A stretch of DNA of 64,000 nucleotides from a virus: positions 96,001 to 160,000 of IMG/VR virus record IMGVR_UViG_3300045974_000166; one strand, given 5' to 3'. Positions within the stretch are counted from its first letter, which is position 1, and each line of letters begins with the position of its first letter. The position numbers and the translations under genes were made by a program. Of the stretch, positions 3,689 through 63,743 are shown piece after piece. The notes under the pieces are model-generated. The model was not told the DNA's origin, ran no database searches, and was given only the letters and a program-made list of their open reading frames with translations.

Positions 3689-5934
3689 CAGATCAAATCG
3701 ACGAACTAAGCAACAACACTCTTCAATCTGTGGCAAAGAAACGTGCCGATCAGTCTAAAGAGGCAGGTGGTATTGGTGTGAATAATCCTACTCGTGCCAA
3801 GGCTATGGATCTTCTTCGGAAGTCCGATAATGCTAAGTATCGGCACACAGAACATCCATCTAAGGTAACTCCAAAGACTCCTGCTCCAGCACCTACCGAA
3901 GCCGATAAAGCAGCTCATGCTAAGGCAAACAAAGCCAAGGTAGATTCTCAGAACAACCGCGGCTATGGCGAAGGCCGATACATGGGTGATTCAGTAGAGC
4001 AGACGGAAGTTGAAGATCAGATTGACGAACTCTCAATGGACACAGTGAAGTCATACAAAGATAAGGTTAAAGCAAATCCTGCTCCATCTAAGACTACTCA
4101 CAACATTCTACACAAAGCTATTCGTAGATTTGCCGGTAAAGAACGTGCCGAAGATCGTATTCATTCAGATGAAATGAAGAAGATGCGTGAACGGCTAGGT
4201 CTGAAGAACGAAGAAGTTCTAGACGAAGATATTGGTTCTAGTATCAAGAAGGGTATCAAAAGCGTTAAACGCGGTTTTCAAGGTTGGGCAGATACAAGAA
4301 TGACACCCGGAAGTATTCAGAAAAGAACTAAAGAACTTACGGATGATGAATTGGCCGACCAAAGAGCTCAAAGAGATGAGCCAGGAAATACAGAACCCGG
4401 AAAACACTCACCTGTGGGTTTACAACGGCGACTACATGACAGAGAAAAAAGAAAACGTGATCTAGCTAATGAAGAAGTTATCACCGAAGGTGCTGGCATT
4501 GGTGATCTAGTCAAGTTCCACAAAATTGCCGGTATGAACGGTCATAGATATGCTCAAATATCTGGTTTCATTATGTCTAAGAAAGACGGTAACATTGATC
4601 CTATGACTGGCCGGGTTCATGGTACAGCTACTCACTATGTGGCTAAACTCAAGAAAGACCCACTGAACACAGTAAACTTCACCCCAGATGTTCATATCCC
4701 AGTTGGTGATGTGCATAAGGTAGATCAGTACGCCGAGATTCAGAACCACAAGGCCAAACAGAAGATGCTTGGCAAGATCAAGGGTGAGTCTATAGACGAA
4801 GAAGTTACATTCTCTGGCAAAGGTGCCAATGGTGTGCAATATAAAATCATCAAAACCGGTGATGATCATGCCATCCATGCAAACGGTAAACACATTGACA
4901 CCTACGGTTCTCACCAACGCGCTATGAGTGTTCTCAAGAATGAAGTTCCAGGTTTAAAAGCAGACCTAAAGGAAGAAGTTCTAGACGAAGATGCCGCTCA
5001 GAAGAATATGGGCCATGCAATGGATACTATTGAACCAAGCAAAAGAGATGCTGCTCGGAAACAATACGGAGCTGCCCGGTCTAAGGGTCTAACCCATGCA
5101 TCTTCTATTAGCCTAATGCACCAACGTTTTGGTGGCACAAATGAAGAAGTAGACGAAGCATTTGAAAAGCCAAAAGCCGCAAAGACTAAAGAAATTGAAA
5201 AGTCCGACAATGCTGCTCATGCTCGACTTAATAAGCCAATGCCAATTCAAAAACCAATACGAGTTGAAGAAGTAGAACAAATAGAAGAACTTTCTAATGA
5301 AACTCTTAAAAGTTACGTTAGCAAATCAAACAAGCATCGCACTCAAGCTTCGGTCGAACATCTAGGACAAGGTAAGTGGGATCCTAAGTTTGTTGATAAA
5401 ATGGATCGTAGAGCCGATCATTCCATAAAAGCTTATCATAAAATCAAGAATAAGCATTCAATGACTACCGAAGAAGTTGTAGATGAGGAAGTCAAAACAG
5501 AAAAGCCTAAGCACAAGGTTGGTGATACCGTTTGGGCAACTTCACCTACCAACAAAGCACTTACAATGACTGGCAAAGTTACAAAAATCGGTGTCACGCT
5601 AACTACCGTGAAGCATAAAGATGGTTCAGAAGCTCATTATCCACACAAACTTGTGAATAACGACTACGAAGTTCTACATCCAAATTCAAAGAAATGGCAA
5701 CGTGAACATCTAGAACAGACTGGGGAACTTCTCTCTTTGTCCGAAGTTAAATACATTCTAGAGAATGCAGCAGGAGGCGCTGGTGTCATTGCTCAACATT
5801 CCGGAGTAAATGACAGTGCTCCCCAAGGTACTGGCAGGGTTAAGAAAATGATGGGTAACAAAACTGATGCTGTAGCTATTGCTAAAATCATAGCAAATGG
5901 TGTAGCATCAAAAGAACAGAAAGAAAGTGAATAA
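3685..5934 (+). CDS. Large modular putative internal head (poly)protein
   Basis: 749 aa; repeated QIDELS/EEVLDE/EEVDE delimiters between basic modules. Confidence 0.6.
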   Translation: MTDQIDELSNNTLQSVAKKRADQSKEAGGIGVNNPTRAKAMDLLRKSDNAKYRHTEHPSKVTPKTPAPAPTEADKAAHAKANKAKVDSQNNRGYGEGRYMGDSVEQTEVEDQIDELSMDTVKSYKDKVKANPAPSKTTHNILHKAIRRFAGKERAEDRIHSDEMKKMRERLGLKNEEVLDEDIGSSIKKGIKSVKRGFQGWADTRMTPGSIQKRTKELTDDELADQRAQRDEPGNTEPGKHSPVGLQRRLHDREKRKRDLANEEVITEGAGIGDLVKFHKIAGMNGHRYAQISGFIMSKKDGNIDPMTGRVHGTATHYVAKLKKDPLNTVNFTPDVHIPVGDVHKVDQYAEIQNHKAKQKMLGKIKGESIDEEVTFSGKGANGVQYKIIKTGDDHAIHANGKHIDTYGSHQRAMSVLKNEVPGLKADLKEEVLDEDAAQKNMGHAMDTIEPSKRDAARKQYGAARSKGLTHASSISLMHQRFGGTNEEVDEAFEKPKAAKTKEIEKSDNAAHARLNKPMPIQKPIRVEEVEQIEELSNETLKSYVSKSNKHRTQASVEHLGQGKWDPKFVDKMDRRADHSIKAYHKIKNKHSMTTEEVVDEEVKTEKPKHKVGDTVWATSPTNKALTMTGKVTKIGVTLTTVKHKDGSEAHYPHKLVNNDYEVLHPNSKKWQREHLEQTGELLSLSEVKYILENAAGGAGVIAQHSGVNDSAPQGTGRVKKMMGNKTDAVAIAKIIANGVASKEQKESE

Positions 5935-36406: not shown

Positions 36407-36615
36407 ACAAGCGCACTATGGAACTTTGGAAGCAGGCAACCGAGCATGCTTTTTCTGTGACTACATTGAATGAGACTCCCAAGGAATTTGAAGAACTGAA
36501 GTTGGCCAAGTTTGCTGAGTTGATTGTGGGGGAATGTGTAGATATTGCATGGCCGAATATCAACGGATTCGTTATTGCAAAGAAGATTAAAGAACATTTC
36601 GGAGTTAAGAGTTAA
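36403..36615 (+). CDS. MN.RI.EL..QA / FAELIV.EC paralog family protein
   Basis: KFAELIVGEC...IKEHFGV. Confidence 0.7.
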   Translation: MNKRTMELWKQATEHAFSVTTLNETPKEFEELKLAKFAELIVGECVDIAWPNINGFVIAKKIKEHFGVKS

Positions 36616-36617
36616 AG

Positions 36618-36830
36618 ATGAAACCGACCCTTCTTAACTTTTCACTGCTCTCAGGGGCGGCCAAGTACAAGTCTTATCTTGATCCAGTGCCGTGTATAGT
36701 TCTTGCTAATGGAGAAGAACTTGAAAAATTTGCAGCAATGGTAGTCAAACATTCCGTTAACTATCTTAAAGATAATAATGCAGATTTTGAAGCTGAACAA
36801 CTGGAAGATTTTTGGAGAGAACATCTATGA
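36618..36830 (+). CDS. Hypothetical protein (distant member of the FAELIV family)
   Basis: LEKFAAMVVKHSV. Confidence 0.55.
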   Translation: MKPTLLNFSLLSGAAKYKSYLDPVPCIVLANGEELEKFAAMVVKHSVNYLKDNNADFEAEQLEDFWREHL

Positions 36831-50887: not shown

Positions 50888-51130
50888 TTGCATGATATGA
50901 GGTACGATGAGTTTAGAATGGCTCACTATGCCACATATCAACCACAACTTCGTGGTCCAGGATTTGAAGATGAAAGCATCACCGATTGGAAAAACCGTTG
51001 GGTTACTCGTATGTCTTCTCTGCAAATCCGTACGTGCATGGTTCATGAATTTGGGCACTACAATAGTGAGTGGAAAGATGTTGCCGAGGTAGTTATTCCG
51101 GCGTCCGAATGGTATAAGGAAACAAAATGA
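50888..51130 (+). CDS. Hypothetical protein
   Basis: LQ.R........SEW.DV..V; ATGA overlap with the ligase. Confidence 0.55.
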   Translation: MHDMRYDEFRMAHYATYQPQLRGPGFEDESITDWKNRWVTRMSSLQIRTCMVHEFGHYNSEWKDVAEVVIPASEWYKETK

Positions 51131-52185
51131 CAGAAGTTTATGTTCGTAAAATGGCATCTATTCAAAAGATTGCCGAAGTAAAGGCTATCCCTGACGCAGA
51201 CAAGATCTGTGCTTACAGGGTGAATGGCTGGTGGATTGTTGACCAAGTCGGCAAGTATGTCGTGGGTGATCTTGTTGTGTACGCAGAACCAGATTCTTTC
51301 ATTCCGAGCACACTTGCACCTTTCTTGACGAAGCCAGGACATTTCCCCAAGACGTATCTTGGTGTCGAAGGTGAAAAACTTCGCACGATCCGTCTGCGCA
51401 AGCAATTGTCACAAGGGCTGTTGCTGCCATTTACTCCAGAAATTGCAATCAAGGGGTTGGGCGCTGGGCCTGGGGCAAAATTTTCGGATTATGAAGGTGC
51501 TGATGTTTCTGAATTTCTCGGCATTGTAAAGTGGGAAGCACCACCTGAGTTTACTTCTGCTGATGCTCGTGGATCATTCCCATCGTTCATCATCAAGACT
51601 GACCAAGAACGTGTGCAAAACTGCTTCCGTGATATGGAAGAACATTTTGAACACCAAACATGGGAAGTCACAGAGAAGTGCGAAGGCTCTTCAATGACCG
51701 TGTACCAACGTCAAGGTGATTTTGGTGTTTGCTCACGCAACTTGGATTTGAAAGAATCTGAGGACAACACATTCTGGAAGATGGCTATTGAGCTTGGTCT
51801 GAAGGAAAAGTTGATCGAAGGTGGGTTGAATATTGCTATTCAAGGTGAACTTTGTGGTCCTGGAATTCAGGGTAACATTTACAACTTGACCAAGCACATG
51901 TTCTTCGTGTTTGATATTTTTGACATTGACAAGTTTGAATACTTTAACCCGCACGAACGTAGGTTCCATACAGCACTGCTTGGGTTGACTGATGTGCCTG
52001 TGCTTGAACGTGAAGCAAATCTGGTTGGGCATACATGTGAATCACTGCTATCAAAGGCCGATGGCCAGTCTGTACTTGGGTTGATTGGATGCCTGCGTGA
52101 AGGTGAAGTTTACAAGTTGAATTCGAATCGGCGTATTTCATTCAAAGCAGTGTCAAATAAATATCTTGAAAAGGTTAAGGATTAA
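51127..52185 (+). CDS. RNA ligase (DRB0094 family)
   Basis: RKMASIQ.I..V..I..AD.I....V.GW, E.DSF.P, .R.R.Q.SQGL, FP.FI.KTDQER.QN, TEK.EGSSMT, QGE..GPGIQGN, EG.V, SFKA.SN.YL. Confidence 0.92.
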   Translation: MTEVYVRKMASIQKIAEVKAIPDADKICAYRVNGWWIVDQVGKYVVGDLVVYAEPDSFIPSTLAPFLTKPGHFPKTYLGVEGEKLRTIRLRKQLSQGLLLPFTPEIAIKGLGAGPGAKFSDYEGADVSEFLGIVKWEAPPEFTSADARGSFPSFIIKTDQERVQNCFRDMEEHFEHQTWEVTEKCEGSSMTVYQRQGDFGVCSRNLDLKESEDNTFWKMAIELGLKEKLIEGGLNIAIQGELCGPGIQGNIYNLTKHMFFVFDIFDIDKFEYFNPHERRFHTALLGLTDVPVLEREANLVGHTCESLLSKADGQSVLGLIGCLREGEVYKLNSNRRISFKAVSNKYLEKVKD

Positions 52186-54476: not shown

Positions 54477-54511
54477 ATTTTCGTTTTTCTGAGAAAAAGT
54501 TGGCTAACCAC

Positions 54512-54519
54512 CATAAATA
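54512..54519 (+). promoter_or_regulatory. T4-type late promoter (CATAAATA)
   Basis: 5 nt upstream of a leaderless 35-codon ORF. Confidence 0.45.
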
Positions 54520-54524
54520 AGTAC

Positions 54525-54632
54525 ATGAAACAAAACCTCTTATCCTTGTCGATGCATCTCTCAAACGCTGTCTATAATAGCGGTTGCGCCATTGCACGCG
54601 GACAATTCACACCAGAATGGGATCAAACATAG
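54525..54632 (+). CDS. Putative leader peptide (35 aa)
   Basis: MKQNLLSLSMHLSNAVYNSGCAIARGQFTPEWDQT, followed by a terminator. Confidence 0.35.
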   Translation: MKQNLLSLSMHLSNAVYNSGCAIARGQFTPEWDQT

Positions 54633-54659
54633 AGGGACTTTGAAATTCTACGGAACACC

Positions 54660-54686
54660 AAAGGCCCTTGTAAGAAGGGCCTTTTT
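54660..54686 (+). terminator. Rho-independent terminator
   Basis: AAAGGCCCTT-gtaag-AAGGGCCTTTTT. Confidence 0.85.
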
Positions 54687-54703: not shown

Positions 54704-54732
54704 TTTACACATATTCCGGGATGGTTTATAAT
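54704..54732 (+). promoter_or_regulatory. Early promoter of RNA island, copy 1
   Basis: TTTACA-17nt-TATAAT. Confidence 0.85.
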
Positions 54733-54741
54733 CATTCCATA

Positions 54742-54781
54742 CCAACAAATCATCGTGTTTGTTGGATTGGTTCTTTAAAAA
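54742..54781 (+). promoter_or_regulatory. boxB-like hairpin + boxA antitermination leader, copy 1
   Basis: CCAACAAA-tCATCGtg-TTTGTTGG then GTTCTTTAAAAA (boxA consensus GYTCTTTAANA). Confidence 0.7.
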
Positions 54782-54784
54782 GTT

Positions 54785-54973
54785 GTTGTTAGGTTCTGAC
54801 TCACTCTAAGGTGAGTATGGTAGCCCTGGGTATTAAGTCCCAATGGGTGAGGTGAAACCAATTAGTTGTTCGGACGTCACGCAAGTGAAGGGTAGCTCAA
54901 AAAGAGCAAGGTAAAGAACCGCAGTATCCGCAAGGACTGTAATTGGCGTAATGTAAGAAATTTCCCTAACAAC
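54785..54973 (+). ncRNA. Candidate structured ncRNA (about 190 nt)
   Basis: Closing stem GTTGTTAGG/CCTAACAAC; internal GNRA-capped hairpins (GTGA, GCAA twice). Confidence 0.5.
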
Positions 54974-54991
54974 TTCTGACTAAAGAAATAA

Positions 54992-55020
54992 TTTACACAT
55001 AATGCAAATTGTGGTATAAT
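54992..55020 (+). promoter_or_regulatory. Early promoter of RNA island, copy 2
   Basis: TTTACA-17nt-TATAAT. Confidence 0.85.
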
Positions 55021-55028
55021 TAATCTTT

Positions 55029-55068
55029 CAAACAGATCATCGAATTTGTTTGTTTAGTTCCTTAACAA
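55029..55068 (+). promoter_or_regulatory. boxB-like hairpin + boxA leader, copy 2
   Basis: CAAACAGAT-CATCGa-ATTTGTTTG then GTTCCTTAACAA. Confidence 0.65.
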
Positions 55069-55637
55069 TATAGTAGACAAGATTCCTTGCATTGACGACA
55101 TAAAAAGTGTGTCCTCGATCGTGAGATTACAGGTGCTAACAGATAGGGTAAAACGTATCCAAGGCAAGTGTGAGGAGTCATTTTGAAGTATCGTAGGTGA
55201 TCCAAACTGCTCCACGAGGTTTGTGGTAGGTGATCTGGACGGTATTTCAAAATGACATTTTGAAGTATTTTAGTTTGAACGTACTCCTGGATCTTAATTG
55301 AAAAAGGCACGCCAGTATTCCTAAAGTATTTCAAAATGATTATCCCAAGACAATAGCGCAACGATAAGATCCGTGCAGACACAATTCTACAATAGCAGCA
55401 CGATATTGGGATGTCATTTTAAAACATACTTAGATGCTAGTTCGATTCTAGGCCTGGGTAAGAGTAGCATAATTTGGCAATGCGAACGTATGTTTTAAAA
55501 TGATTGTCTGATTGTGCATTAGTAGTTTAAGCAGAGGAAGACGTCATTTTGAAGTATTTTGTGTAATTCCCGTCTCAACGGTATGCCGTCCCAACAGCTA
55601 ACCGCGTAGGTAACAAAGTATTTCAAAATGATTTTAT

Positions 55638-55731
55638 GGGCTAACACCGGTAGGATCCGGCCAGTGGTCGTCAATGACTCAGTATGGAATGAAAGCTTTG
55701 AAGTAGGTTCGAGTCCTACCTTGGTCCACCA
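55638..55731 (+). ncRNA. tRNA-like RNA with aberrant D/anticodon region
   Basis: 7-bp acceptor GGGCTAA/TTGGTCC, canonical T arm GTAGG-TTCGAGT-CCTAC, 3' ACCA. Confidence 0.5.
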
Positions 55732-56055
55732 ATTTTATTCCTCGGACTGGAAATACAGTGATGAATCCGTAAGCCGCTCGATAGCCCAAGGGTCACTGTA
55801 TAGTTGTGTTTGGAGTTAATATTACCAAGCACAGTGAAGTTAGATTCTTCATAGGGGAGCCAAATCACGCTTAGAGGTTGGGTGAAACCTCCGAGTACTT
55901 AAATGTACAATCCGCAGTACAGTGAGAAGCCCTGCGTTTATTTTAAAGCACATTGCCTGTGCGGACACAATGAGAAACATAGGTTCAAAGTGTGCTTTAA
56001 AATGGAATTAGCAAGAGTAATTAACTTGCTCCATTATCGGGAGTCATGACCCGAT

Positions 56056-56150
56056 GAACTCGTAGTGATGGAATTGGTAGACATAGGGCCCTTTCCGGGT
56101 CCTGCCGTAAAAAGCGTACAGGTTCGAGTCCTGTCTACAATGAGTTCGCA
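56056..56150 (+). ncRNA. tRNA-like RNA: Leu/Ser-type body, TTC anticodon, bulged 10-bp acceptor, no CCA
   Basis: D arm ATGGAATTGGTAGACAT, long variable arm, T arm ACAGG-TTCGAGT-CCTGT. Confidence 0.5.
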
Positions 56151-56539
56151 TTTTAAAGTATTCTGCAACGGCCGATTGTGGTCAAATAGACGAAGAGCGT
56201 ATAAGGTTGGTACCAACCTAAATCCCAGTAGGTTTATGAAGTAGAATGCTTTAAAATGATTTCAATCCACAATCCTCGCTCATCTGGGGATTACAATATG
56301 GGAATTAACCCTAAATGCGATGAGGCATTGACATCCTGTAAGGGTGTATAGCTTGAATTAACAGGGTGGATCGAAATGATTTTATAGTTGAAGGCATTGC
56401 ACTATCTGAGAAACACATCAGTAGGGTTGCTCCTACACCGGTGTGAAAAGTCGGAATTCGTTCTTCGCAGAGTTCAATAACCGTATTGGGACGAAGGTAA
56501 AGTGTTTTGAACAGTGCCTTCAACTATAAATAGAAATAT

Positions 56540-56615
56540 GGGCTGGTAGTGATACTGGGGTACACGAGGCACTTGCAATGCTTAGATTGGAGTTCGATCC
56601 TCCACCGGTCCACCA
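56540..56615 (+). tRNA. tRNA-Ala(TGC)
   Basis: Cloverleaf, G3:U70, CCA. Confidence 0.9.
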
Positions 56616-56622
56616 AAAATTT

Positions 56623-56694
56623 GCGGGTTGTTTGTGGAATACGTTTAGCCTTCCAAGCTGAAAGATGCAGGTTCGAACCCTGTAGCCCGCTCCA
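56623..56694 (+). tRNA. tRNA-Gly(TCC)
   Basis: Acceptor GCGGGTT, loop CTTCCAA, T arm, TCCA end; weak D arm. Confidence 0.8.
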
Positions 56695-56703
56695 CTTTAA
56701 TGA

Positions 56704-56780
56704 GTCCCAGTAGCCGAATAGGTATAGGCAGCTGTCTTAAAAGCAGTAATCTGTGGGTTCGAGTCCCACTTGGGACACCA
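56704..56780 (+). tRNA. tRNA-Leu(TAA), short variable loop
   Basis: Loop CTTAAAA, T arm, ACCA. Confidence 0.8.
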
Positions 56781-56787
56781 AGAATAA

Positions 56788-56863
56788 GCCAATGTGGGAC
56801 AGGGGTTGTCCAGCTGATTGTCTATCAGCCTTTATGACGGTTCGAGTCCGTTCGTTGGCGCCA
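56788..56863 (+). tRNA. tRNA-Asp(GTC)
   Basis: GCTGA-TTGTCTA-TCAGC, G73, CCA. Confidence 0.8.
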
Positions 56864-56868
56864 AGTTA

Positions 56869-56927
56869 AGGATCAGTTCAGCAAAAACTAAAAACTTTGA
56901 ATCATTCTCAAACTAAAAGTTGATCCT
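56869..56927 (+). ncRNA. Y-RNA-like element, copy 1 (short)
   Basis: AGGATCA/TGATCCT stem, GTTCAGCAA motif, A-rich interior. Confidence 0.5.
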
Positions 56928-56932
56928 GTTAA

Positions 56933-56961
56933 TTTACACATATTGATGAATGTTTTATAAT
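56933..56961 (+). promoter_or_regulatory. Phage early promoter
   Basis: TTTACA-17nt-TATAAT. Confidence 0.85.
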
Positions 56962-56986
56962 AACACATCAAATACGGAATTGCAAA

Positions 56987-57151
56987 ATGATTAAAGTTAA
57001 CATGAAACAAATGAAAAATTGGAAGGTTACTTCTGATAACGTTAAATTCTATGACTCAATCATGAAAACAAAAGGTTCTGTAGTTACTTTAGACAAAAGA
57101 CCTTATGTTGAATTACTTTGTGAGTTCAACATAATGTTTACGGCAAAATAA
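56987..57151 (+). CDS. Hypothetical protein (54 aa, not in ORF track)
   Basis: Follows promoter; MIKVNMKQMKNWKVTSDNVKFYDS... Confidence 0.5.
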   Translation: MIKVNMKQMKNWKVTSDNVKFYDSIMKTKGSVVTLDKRPYVELLCEFNIMFTAK

Positions 57152-57228
57152 TTTACACATAATATGGAATGATTTTAAATCATTCCATCCAATCAAACAT
57201 CGCTTTGATTGACTAGGTTCATTAAAAA
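57152..57228 (+). promoter_or_regulatory. Early promoter + boxB-like hairpin + boxA leader, copy 3
   Basis: TTTACA-17nt-TTAAAT; CAATCAAA-CATCGc-TTTGATTG; GTTCATTAAAAA. Confidence 0.65.
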
Positions 57229-57271
57229 GTTATTGAAGGATTTTCTGTGTTGACACTTAGTTGGCACAGAG

Positions 57272-59689: not shown

Positions 59690-60253
59690 ATGAATAGGTA
59701 TCCATTAGTGCTAACACTAGATTCTGCAGGTATTCCGCAGAGATGGTCTACCTGGGAAGAAGGTGTCGTGGCAAAATACAAAGGCGTTATCGCTTGGTCA
59801 CTTGGTGAAGAAACCATCTACCGGGGCGGTAACTCAAGACTTACTGGCGAACAATCAACCGTAGCAGTTCCATCTATTATTGCTATTCGATCTATGGGTC
59901 GTACAAAGAACCGAGCAGTGCCACTTACAAACAAGAATTTGTTTGGGCGTGACCGGAACATTTGTTGTTACTGTGGTACTCATGTGAAAGATCATGACGC
60001 TACACGTGACCATATTGTTCCGTATGCTAAGAAAGGTACGAACGTTTGGATGAATGTTGTTACTGCATGTAAGCCTTGCAATAACTATAAGGATGACAAA
60101 ACTGTAGAACAAGCTGGGCTAGAGATGCTATATGCACCTTATGTCCCAGATCGTGCAGAAGCTTTGATTCTTGCCAACCGTAACATTTTGGCAGATCAAA
60201 TGGAATTCTTATTGGCACATTTGCCTAAGCATTCTCGGGCACGACCACATTAG
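59690..60253 (+). CDS. HNH endonuclease
   Basis: LFGRDRNICCYCG, TRDHIVP..K.G...WMNVVTACK.CN..K. Confidence 0.92.
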   Translation: MNRYPLVLTLDSAGIPQRWSTWEEGVVAKYKGVIAWSLGEETIYRGGNSRLTGEQSTVAVPSIIAIRSMGRTKNRAVPLTNKNLFGRDRNICCYCGTHVKDHDATRDHIVPYAKKGTNVWMNVVTACKPCNNYKDDKTVEQAGLEMLYAPYVPDRAEALILANRNILADQMEFLLAHLPKHSRARPH

Positions 60254-63629: not shown

Positions 63630-63651
63630 AGCTATCTTATTATGATTTATA

Positions 63652-63682
63652 GGGTGGGAGAGAAATCTCCCACCTTTTTTTT
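63652..63682 (+). terminator. Rho-independent terminator
   Basis: GGTGGGAGA-GAAA-TCTCCCACC-TTTTTTTT. Confidence 0.9.
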
Positions 63683-63743
63683 GGTATAAACTATGATAAT
63701 ATTGTCATTAAATACTTGTTCTATGGCCAACATAACTAATATC

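Follow-up and report, generated by a model that had tools for sequence, protein, structure and literature searches.

Three early promoters of a T4-like myovirus are each followed by a short hairpin with a CATCG loop and, a few nucleotides (nt) further on, by a copy of boxA, the antitermination signal of bacterial ribosomal RNA (rRNA; rrn) operons. All three leaders head untranslated arrays of transfer RNA (tRNA) genes and other non-coding RNAs (ncRNAs), and no open reading frame (ORF) starts after boxA. The stretch of DNA analyzed, hereafter the window, is 64,000 nt long and corresponds to positions 96,001-160,000 of IMG/VR record IMGVR_UViG_3300045974_000166 (192,097 bp, judged complete); coordinates are those of the window and the + strand unless stated otherwise. 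Within this genome the leader is found exclusively at promoters that head RNA arrays, its stems covary, its boxA is identical to that of rRNA operons, and similar leaders recur in many other phages. We consider it reasonably likely, with a probability of roughly 0.65, that these elements are compact bacterial rRNA-operon leaders, at which host NusB and NusE would load on boxA and seed an rrn-type antitermination and RNA-folding complex. A hairpin followed by an rrn-type boxA after each of three promoters means that the phage probably borrows the host machinery that keeps RNA polymerase transcribing in order to make untranslated RNAs.

The first promoter, P1 (54704-54732), has a -35 box TTTACA (54704-54709) and a -10 box TATAAT (54727-54732) separated by 17 nt, and is followed by a 9-bp hairpin with the loop CATCGT (54742-54765) and by boxA 1, GTTCTTTAAAAA (54770-54781). 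P2 (54992-55020) has the same -35 box (54992-54997) and spacer, with the -10 box at 55015-55020 in the context TGgTATAAT, and precedes a second 9-bp hairpin with the loop CATCGA (55029-55052) and boxA 2, GTTCCTTAACAA (55057-55068). In P3 (57152-57180), TTTACA (57152-57157) and TTAAAT (57175-57180) are again 17 nt apart; the hairpin has 8 bp and the loop CATCGC (57190-57211), and boxA 3 is GTTCATTAAAAA (57217-57228). The hairpins begin 1-3 nt 3' of the predicted transcription start and are separated from boxA by 4, 4 and 5 nt, respectively, so placing boxA at about +30. On re-reading the sequence we recovered the coordinates and sequences of these promoters, CATCG-loop hairpins and boxA copies exactly as given in the original prediction, which had been made from the letters alone. 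P1 and P3 also have the initial transcribed sequence CATTCCAT in common.

Chance does not account for these copies of boxA. The 12-mer GTTCNTTAANAA has three matches in the window, where 0.34 are expected, and exactly three on both strands of the whole 192,097-bp genome, at 54770, 55057 and 57217. When the genome is ranked with a boxA weight matrix derived solely from other phages (58 leaders), the three leaders take ranks 1-3 (19.0 bits for boxA 1, 17.4 for boxA 3 and 14.3 for boxA 2); the fourth match (14.2 bits) has no promoter, and the scan reveals no further boxA inside the arrays. The word CATCG occurs 319 times in the genome, four times as a hexaloop on a stem of at least 6 bp, and the three cases with stems of 8-9 bp are the leaders. 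The early promoter class, defined as T[TG]TACAYATA-N13-TATAAT, has 31 members genome-wide, 28 of which lead into a Shine-Dalgarno sequence and ATG or a leaderless ATG; the hairpin-boxA leader is absent from all 28, while no ORF starts behind the other three, all of which carry both hairpin and boxA. Because the chance of this 3-versus-28 split is exactly 1/4495, looking for boxA behind protein-gene promoters leaves the proposal standing. It had been claimed that boxA would be confined to RNA-island promoters and that the other early promoters, which drive protein genes, lack the leader, and both statements hold across the genome and on both strands (0 of 28 ORF-heading and 3 of 3 RNA-heading promoters). 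As a separate observation, at seven of the 31 early promoters (window 30978, 46646 and 50026; genome 40189, 43773 and 49812, all on the - strand, and 163908) the -10 box is followed after 5-6 nt by the ATG of an ORF of 53-730 amino acids, which suggests that this T4-like phage makes leaderless early mRNAs.

Taken alone, the leader hairpins have an ordinary thermodynamic stability (z about -1), and support for them comes from covariation instead of fold energy. We aligned the three leaders with four copies from close relatives (IMG/VR contigs L029, L121 and L097) and six from distant phages. In this alignment 88.9% of cells are paired and both sides have changed in 8 of the 9 pairs, values reached by none of 500 shuffles, and shifting the partner by one column reduces pairing to less than 50%. 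The earlier statement that the stems differ in sequence yet keep pairing is therefore borne out by this covariation, and the leaders of the window are themselves kept in close relatives with compensatory stem changes. The RNAalifold consensus contains the same hairpin and leaves boxA unpaired, as do local folds. The hairpins do not resemble intrinsic terminators or attenuators, having A/U-rich stems (3 GC pairs) and no U run on their 3' side, and hairpin 1 is the only one of them to pass a loose terminator scan.

This covariation also bears on whether the three promoters carry a signal in DNA, either an operator or a promoter-proximal pause or escape element. The element occupies +3 to +42, a range in which operators and effects of the initial transcribed region are found, and a perfect 11-bp palindrome, ATGGAATGATT-TTA-AATCATTCCAT, lies across the -10 box of P3 (57164-57188) and may be an operator. 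The compensatory changes, however, keep pairing and not sequence, which points to RNA structure. Moreover, the conserved 12-mer is an RNA signal of known function, and the same leader stands behind unrelated promoters of the types TTGACA, GTGTACA and TTTACAcata, so that we regard a DNA-level signal as very improbable.

Evidence that the leader belongs to a wider class was obtained by scanning IMG/VR for TATAAT-N22-50-GTTCNTTAAMAATT, a pattern that requires neither the hairpin nor CATCG. At least 117 stretches matched, at least 105 of them distinct, and 59 of the matches listed are preceded by a suitably spaced -35 box. A tRNA gene lies within 300 nt on the same strand in at least 46 leaders from these 59, often 13-20 nt past boxA; among the 46 listed matches lacking a -35 box, three have a tRNA at this distance. 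We identified 61 non-redundant leaders, among the matches listed, with a tRNA gene within 2.5 kb, and at least three promoter flavours are represented, the promoter types of phage leaders being those named above. A hairpin of at least 6 bp ending 0-9 nt before boxA is present in 51% of the 61 leaders compared to 5.6% of shuffles. Such hairpins most often stand 3 nt from boxA and have GAAA and GCAA as their most frequent loops, and some leaders have no hairpin. The class can be described as a sigma-70 promoter, a short hairpin, GTTCNTTAA[AC]AA and tRNA genes on the same strand, and the three leaders in the window fit it in spacing, hairpin and boxA. A cultured member is the Xanthomonas citri jumbo phage XacN1 (AP018399), in which TTGACA, 17 nt, TAAAGT and a hairpin with an ATAGAG loop are followed by GTTCTTTAACAA at 36631. 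This leader spans 36560-36642, with a copy in the terminal repeat at 355426 (L398, L405 and L412), and is followed by a transfer-messenger RNA gene at about +570 and by 22 tRNAs within 12 kb. None of the words boxA, antitermination and promoter appears in the paper describing XacN1 (PMC5852040).

Matches elsewhere among cultured phages are of other kinds. When cultured phages with similar leaders were sought by short-query blastn, promoter-like matches alone were returned, and in a Variovorax phage with a tRNA in common no boxA lies close to the tRNA genes. In T5 (NC_005859), boxA matches are not near tRNA genes. The same genome does have a GGCGG/CCGCC hairpin followed after 2 nt by GCTCTTTAAAAA, an E. 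coli-type boxA, at 4977-5010 on the - strand (repeat copy at 116508); the site is located in the pre-early first-step-transfer region, inside the coding sequence of a 35-amino-acid hypothetical protein (T5.009), and could be a chance match, about 0.2 being expected per genome. Phage GAP32 (NC_019401) has a promoter-like CTTGCA, 17 nt, TAGTAT, a small hairpin and GCTCTTTAAAAA at about 4110-4186 (L396), with no tRNA in the next 10 kb.

Another reading is that the leader acts only in RNA stability and processing. On this account the 5' hairpin blocks 5'-end-dependent decay and the A/U-rich strand is an entry site for RNase E or another nuclease, with no role for Nus factors. The hairpin begins 1-3 nt from the predicted 5' end, and stem-loops at such 5'-terminal positions stabilise transcripts. 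In addition, the arrays need to be cut into many small RNAs, and the first two transcription units (units 1, 2 and 3 being those that begin at P1, P2 and P3) lack the composition associated with Rho loading. Nevertheless, this account fails to explain why three paralogs and dozens of unrelated phages, with differing flanks, all contain an exact copy, 12-13 nt long, of the gammaproteobacterial rrn boxA. Nuclease sites are far more degenerate. Promoters that head mRNAs would gain equally from 5' protection but have no hairpin. We therefore consider a purely stabilising or processing function unlikely.

Comparison with bacteria supports the assignment of the phage boxA to the rrn type. Initial scans of IMG/VR and of bacterial contigs that required CATCG gave mostly chance matches, but all contig matches located before 16S or 23S genes came from Gammaproteobacteria (in the GTDB sense throughout, so that one betaproteobacterial metagenome-assembled genome (MAG) is included), and we read the whole genomes of five matching bacteria. 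Their rrn layout consists of a promoter, a hairpin, 2-3 nt, GTTCTTTAA[AC]AAT, 14-20 nt and TGTGTGGG, the boxC present in every rrn leader examined, with 16S at +160 to +208. The boxA form GTTCTTTAA[AC]AAT is found in the 16S leaders of Pseudoalteromonas, a Cellvibrionales MAG, Pasteurella and a gammaproteobacterial MAG, and also as the spacer boxA about 250 nt before 23S in Gammaproteobacteria. In one MAG rrn leader boxA lies 34 nt from the -10 box, compared to 36-37 nt in the phage. More broadly, GYTCTTTAAMAAT followed by GTGTGGG is present in 62 of 301 sampled Gammaproteobacteria (a reversed-pattern control gave one match), the GTTC and GCTC forms of boxA being about equally frequent among the 62. 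An annotated spacer boxA of Taylorella is TGTTCTTTAACA (PMC2666751), and GTTCTTTAAAA before an untranslated array of clustered regularly interspaced short palindromic repeats (CRISPR) lowers polarity in Legionella (PMC7862264). Together with the genome comparison, these two papers lead us to conclude that the phage boxA is, as far as sequence can tell, the natural rrn boxA of Gammaproteobacteria, standing in rrn order (boxB then boxA) and not in lambda order. Since boxA variants differ between bacterial groups, the variant carried by the phage narrows down its host.

The conserved loops of the hairpins raise the question of a phage-encoded partner. In such a nut-like site with rrn order, a phage protein would read the hairpin loop (CAUCGN, or GAUAGAG in relatives), with or without NusB and NusE, and make the polymerase resistant to termination; acting with host NusB and NusE, a protein docked on the CAUCGN/GAUAGAG loop would constitute an N-like system of virulent phages that serves stable-RNA arrays. 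The three paralogous leaders carry an invariant CATCG loop on different stems, and distant phages have the same loop on stems unrelated to these. The P2-orthologous leader of close relatives has another conserved loop, AAA(C/T)GATAGAGT(T/C)A, which occurs together with CATCG in L043, a contig with a different promoter type, and the XacN1 loop is ATAGAG. Furthermore, host rrn leaders do not consistently have either loop. Only 3 of 9 Pseudoalteromonas operons contain CATCG, for which reason we dropped the idea that the phage loop copies a host boxB, and a search of 121 genomes of a single order, that of the betaproteobacterial MAG, revealed no ATAGAG loop with boxA. The distant CATCG copies were, however, fetched with a pattern that requires CATCG, so that their loop identity is partly built in (no such selection applied to their stems and boxA), and the scan lacking this requirement returned mostly plain GNRA loops, or in some cases no hairpin. 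No arginine-rich candidate was identified, although no search aimed at small arginine-rich proteins was made, and the 54-amino-acid ORF between units is rich in lysine instead of arginine. Finally, boxB is dispensable in E. coli rrn (PMC10250234). A loop-reading phage protein thus seems to us a doubtful explanation, and the conserved loops may be either plain stable loops of the lineage or a phage-protein site. Sequences of the form AAA(C/T)GATAGAGT(T/C)A before boxA were seen both in relatives and in unrelated phages (L121:127-178 and L097:2694-2745, both on the - strand, L043:3807-3857, L364, L269 and L309).

For the rrn-type reading, we infer the binding of Nus factors and every functional consequence of the leaders from these comparisons. 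Host RNA polymerase would transcribe the leader, NusB and NusE (S10) would bind single-stranded boxA RNA at about +30, and NusA, NusG and SuhB (and S4) would then join to convert the polymerase into an rrn-type antitermination complex. On the phage arrays such a complex could confer Rho resistance on untranslated RNA and faster elongation, and by holding the 5' leader near the RNA exit it might allow long-range helices to form and the packed tRNA/ncRNA cassettes to fold. The phage would apply it to the block of about 9 kb between the terminators at 54660 and 63651. Family searches of the genome identified no phage gene for NusG, NusB, S10 or NusA, and any function of boxA must therefore use host factors. 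In E. coli, boxA is necessary and sufficient for formation of the rrn antitermination complex (PMC10250234), and this complex protects RNA polymerase against Rho (PMC12360218).

Several observations weigh against this reading. There are contexts in which boxA promotes Rho termination (PMC12360218). Windows with a Rho-loading-like excess of C over G (C-rich, G-poor) are absent from units 1 and 2 and make up 24 of 456 in unit 3; a need for protection from Rho is accordingly not evident from composition. An ncRNA operon at genome position ~166,400 has a weaker promoter of a different type and neither hairpin nor boxA, meaning that not every RNA operon of the phage uses the leader. T4 has a tRNA cluster and no match to GYTCNTTAAMAA anywhere in its genome, and KVP40 and Aeh1, whose tRNA clusters likewise lack boxA, have a single boxA match each, not near the tRNAs. 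Within the three leaders themselves, position 5 of boxA varies (T, C and A), and TGTGTGGG is absent from the 8-24 nt 3' of boxA 1. The match between the phage boxA and that of the host, moreover, holds at class level only. Taken together, the missing C-over-G windows, the ncRNA operon lacking boxA and the boxA-free T4 genome imply that elongation speed or RNA folding may matter as much as Rho resistance. Candidate boxC sequences after boxA 2 and boxA 3 (55107-55114 and 57246-57253) match at 5-6 of 8 positions, which we estimate to be within chance, as is the best boxC match (57244-57256).

One feature of unit 1 may recall the architecture of rRNA operons. Between P1 and P2 lies a structured RNA of about 190 nt (54782-54975; fold z -3.76) that is closed by a 9-bp helix between GTTGTTAGG (54785-54793), which begins 4 nt after boxA 1, and CCTAACAAC (54965-54973), the 5' and 3' arms of a putative leader-trailer helix. 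This RNA has no Rfam match and is kept in L029 (with an internal deletion), L121 and the more distant L112; its helix is maintained in relatives by G.U changes and in a distant phage by a swapped segment. The best candidates for leader-trailer helices in units 2 and 3 have 10 bp and were rejected as being within chance.

The leaders are set in an almost ORF-free block of about 9 kb bounded by the two terminators. The first of these (54660-54686; a 10-bp stem AAAGGCCCTT/AAGGGCCTTT, a 5-nt loop and a T run) closes the upstream unit directly before P1. The second, at 63651-63684, is the first strong intrinsic terminator 3' of P1 in a terminator scan, which revealed no convincing + strand terminator between P1 and 63651, and it is likely to be the end of a multi-promoter unit. 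P1 and P2 are arranged in tandem 288 nt apart, each with its own leader and with no terminator between them. Their untranslated cargo (55069-56930) comprises small structured RNAs and clamped RNA cassettes followed by tRNA-Glu, Ala, Gly, Leu and Asp, while that of P3 (57229-61834) comprises about 20 tRNA genes together with tRNA-like and other ncRNAs. Altogether, 24-25 tRNA genes and many other untranslated RNAs are encoded on the + strand at 54.7-61.8 kb. An HNH homing-endonuclease ORF (59690-60253; Pfam HNH_5, E 7.6e-14) lies inside the P3 array directly 5' of tRNA-Ser. Rfam searches of the RNA island gave nothing but tRNAs above thresholds, and a YrlA-like RNA at 55404-55516 was rejected at 28.7 bits against an Rfam threshold of 69. 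Upstream of the island, a gene of the RNA-ligase family (51127-52185; Pfam RNA_ligase and the PHA02142 OB fold) is located 2.5 kb to the 5' side, and the stretch of about 180 nt from the end of the preceding ORF to the first terminator (54477-54660) is free of ORFs and may be another small RNA or a 3' untranslated region. Assignment of the phage as a T4-like myovirus is based on its tail sheath, portal and helicase families, its portal being at most 52% identical to those of cyanophage and T4-type phages. Megablast and blastn searches against a phage collection identified no close cultured relative, returning tRNA-sized matches only. DNA of the stretch is present in pond, wetland and groundwater metagenomes, a pond metagenome being the best, and none of the runs listed as containing it is an RNA run.

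To our knowledge, boxA has been described in rRNA operons, CRISPR arrays, suhB and lambdoid nut sites, and searches of the literature on boxA, antitermination, Nus factors and CRISPR arrays yielded no report of boxA ahead of phage tRNA genes. The rrn-type boxA leader would be a known element in a new setting, a conclusion that is well supported by sequence and comparison. If host Nus factors do load on it, virulent phages co-opt the transcription and folding machinery of rRNA without an N protein, permitting mass production of tRNAs and structured RNAs in the first minutes of infection. The succession of promoter, hairpin and boxA is, in addition, a simple marker by which the 5' ends of phage RNA operons can be recognised in metagenomic sequences.

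Among known systems, the rrn leaders of bacteria have the same succession of promoter, hairpin, 2-5 nt and boxA ahead of untranslated stable RNA, with a boxA 12-mer that is identical or differs at one position and the same distance from the -10 box. The rrn leader-trailer helix is positioned right after boxA (PMC10250234), as is the putative one of unit 1 in the phage. Unlike rrn leaders, those of the phage lack boxC, carry tRNA and ncRNA cargo instead of rRNA, occur as three separate leaders with no internal (spacer) boxA, and are borne by a virulent phage; they also have a conserved loop, CAUCGN, in contrast to the variable loops of rrn boxB. A second parallel is provided by CRISPR arrays, in which one promoter-proximal boxA (GTTCTTTAAAA in Legionella) guards a long untranslated small-RNA array from polarity, as that of the phage may do. 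The presence of boxA in CRISPR-array leaders was reportedly described by Stringer et al. in eLife in 2020. The phage arrays differ in having no CRISPR repeats, in their tRNA and ncRNA cargo, and in the covarying hairpin directly 5' of boxA. Lambdoid nut sites and N would be similar in that a phage uses boxA and host Nus factors for processive early transcription. In lambda, however, boxA precedes boxB, the GNRA-like boxB pentaloop is bound by N and the cargo is protein-coding, whereas in the phage the order is reversed, with the hairpin 5' of boxA, the loop is CAUCGN and boxA is of the full rrn type. The T4 tRNA cluster, with eight tRNAs and the species 1 and 2 RNAs, is transcribed early and has homing-endonuclease ORFs nearby. 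It is the same kind of early stable-RNA island in the same type of phage, but in T4 it lacks boxA. XacN1, a jumbo phage unrelated to T4, differs from the phage in its ATAGAG loop and in having one leader for the whole island, yet it has the same arrangement of promoter, hairpin and boxA heading an RNA island, here in the terminal repeat. XacN1 and Xanthomonas citri therefore constitute a cultured pair with the same layout, in which a direct test is possible.

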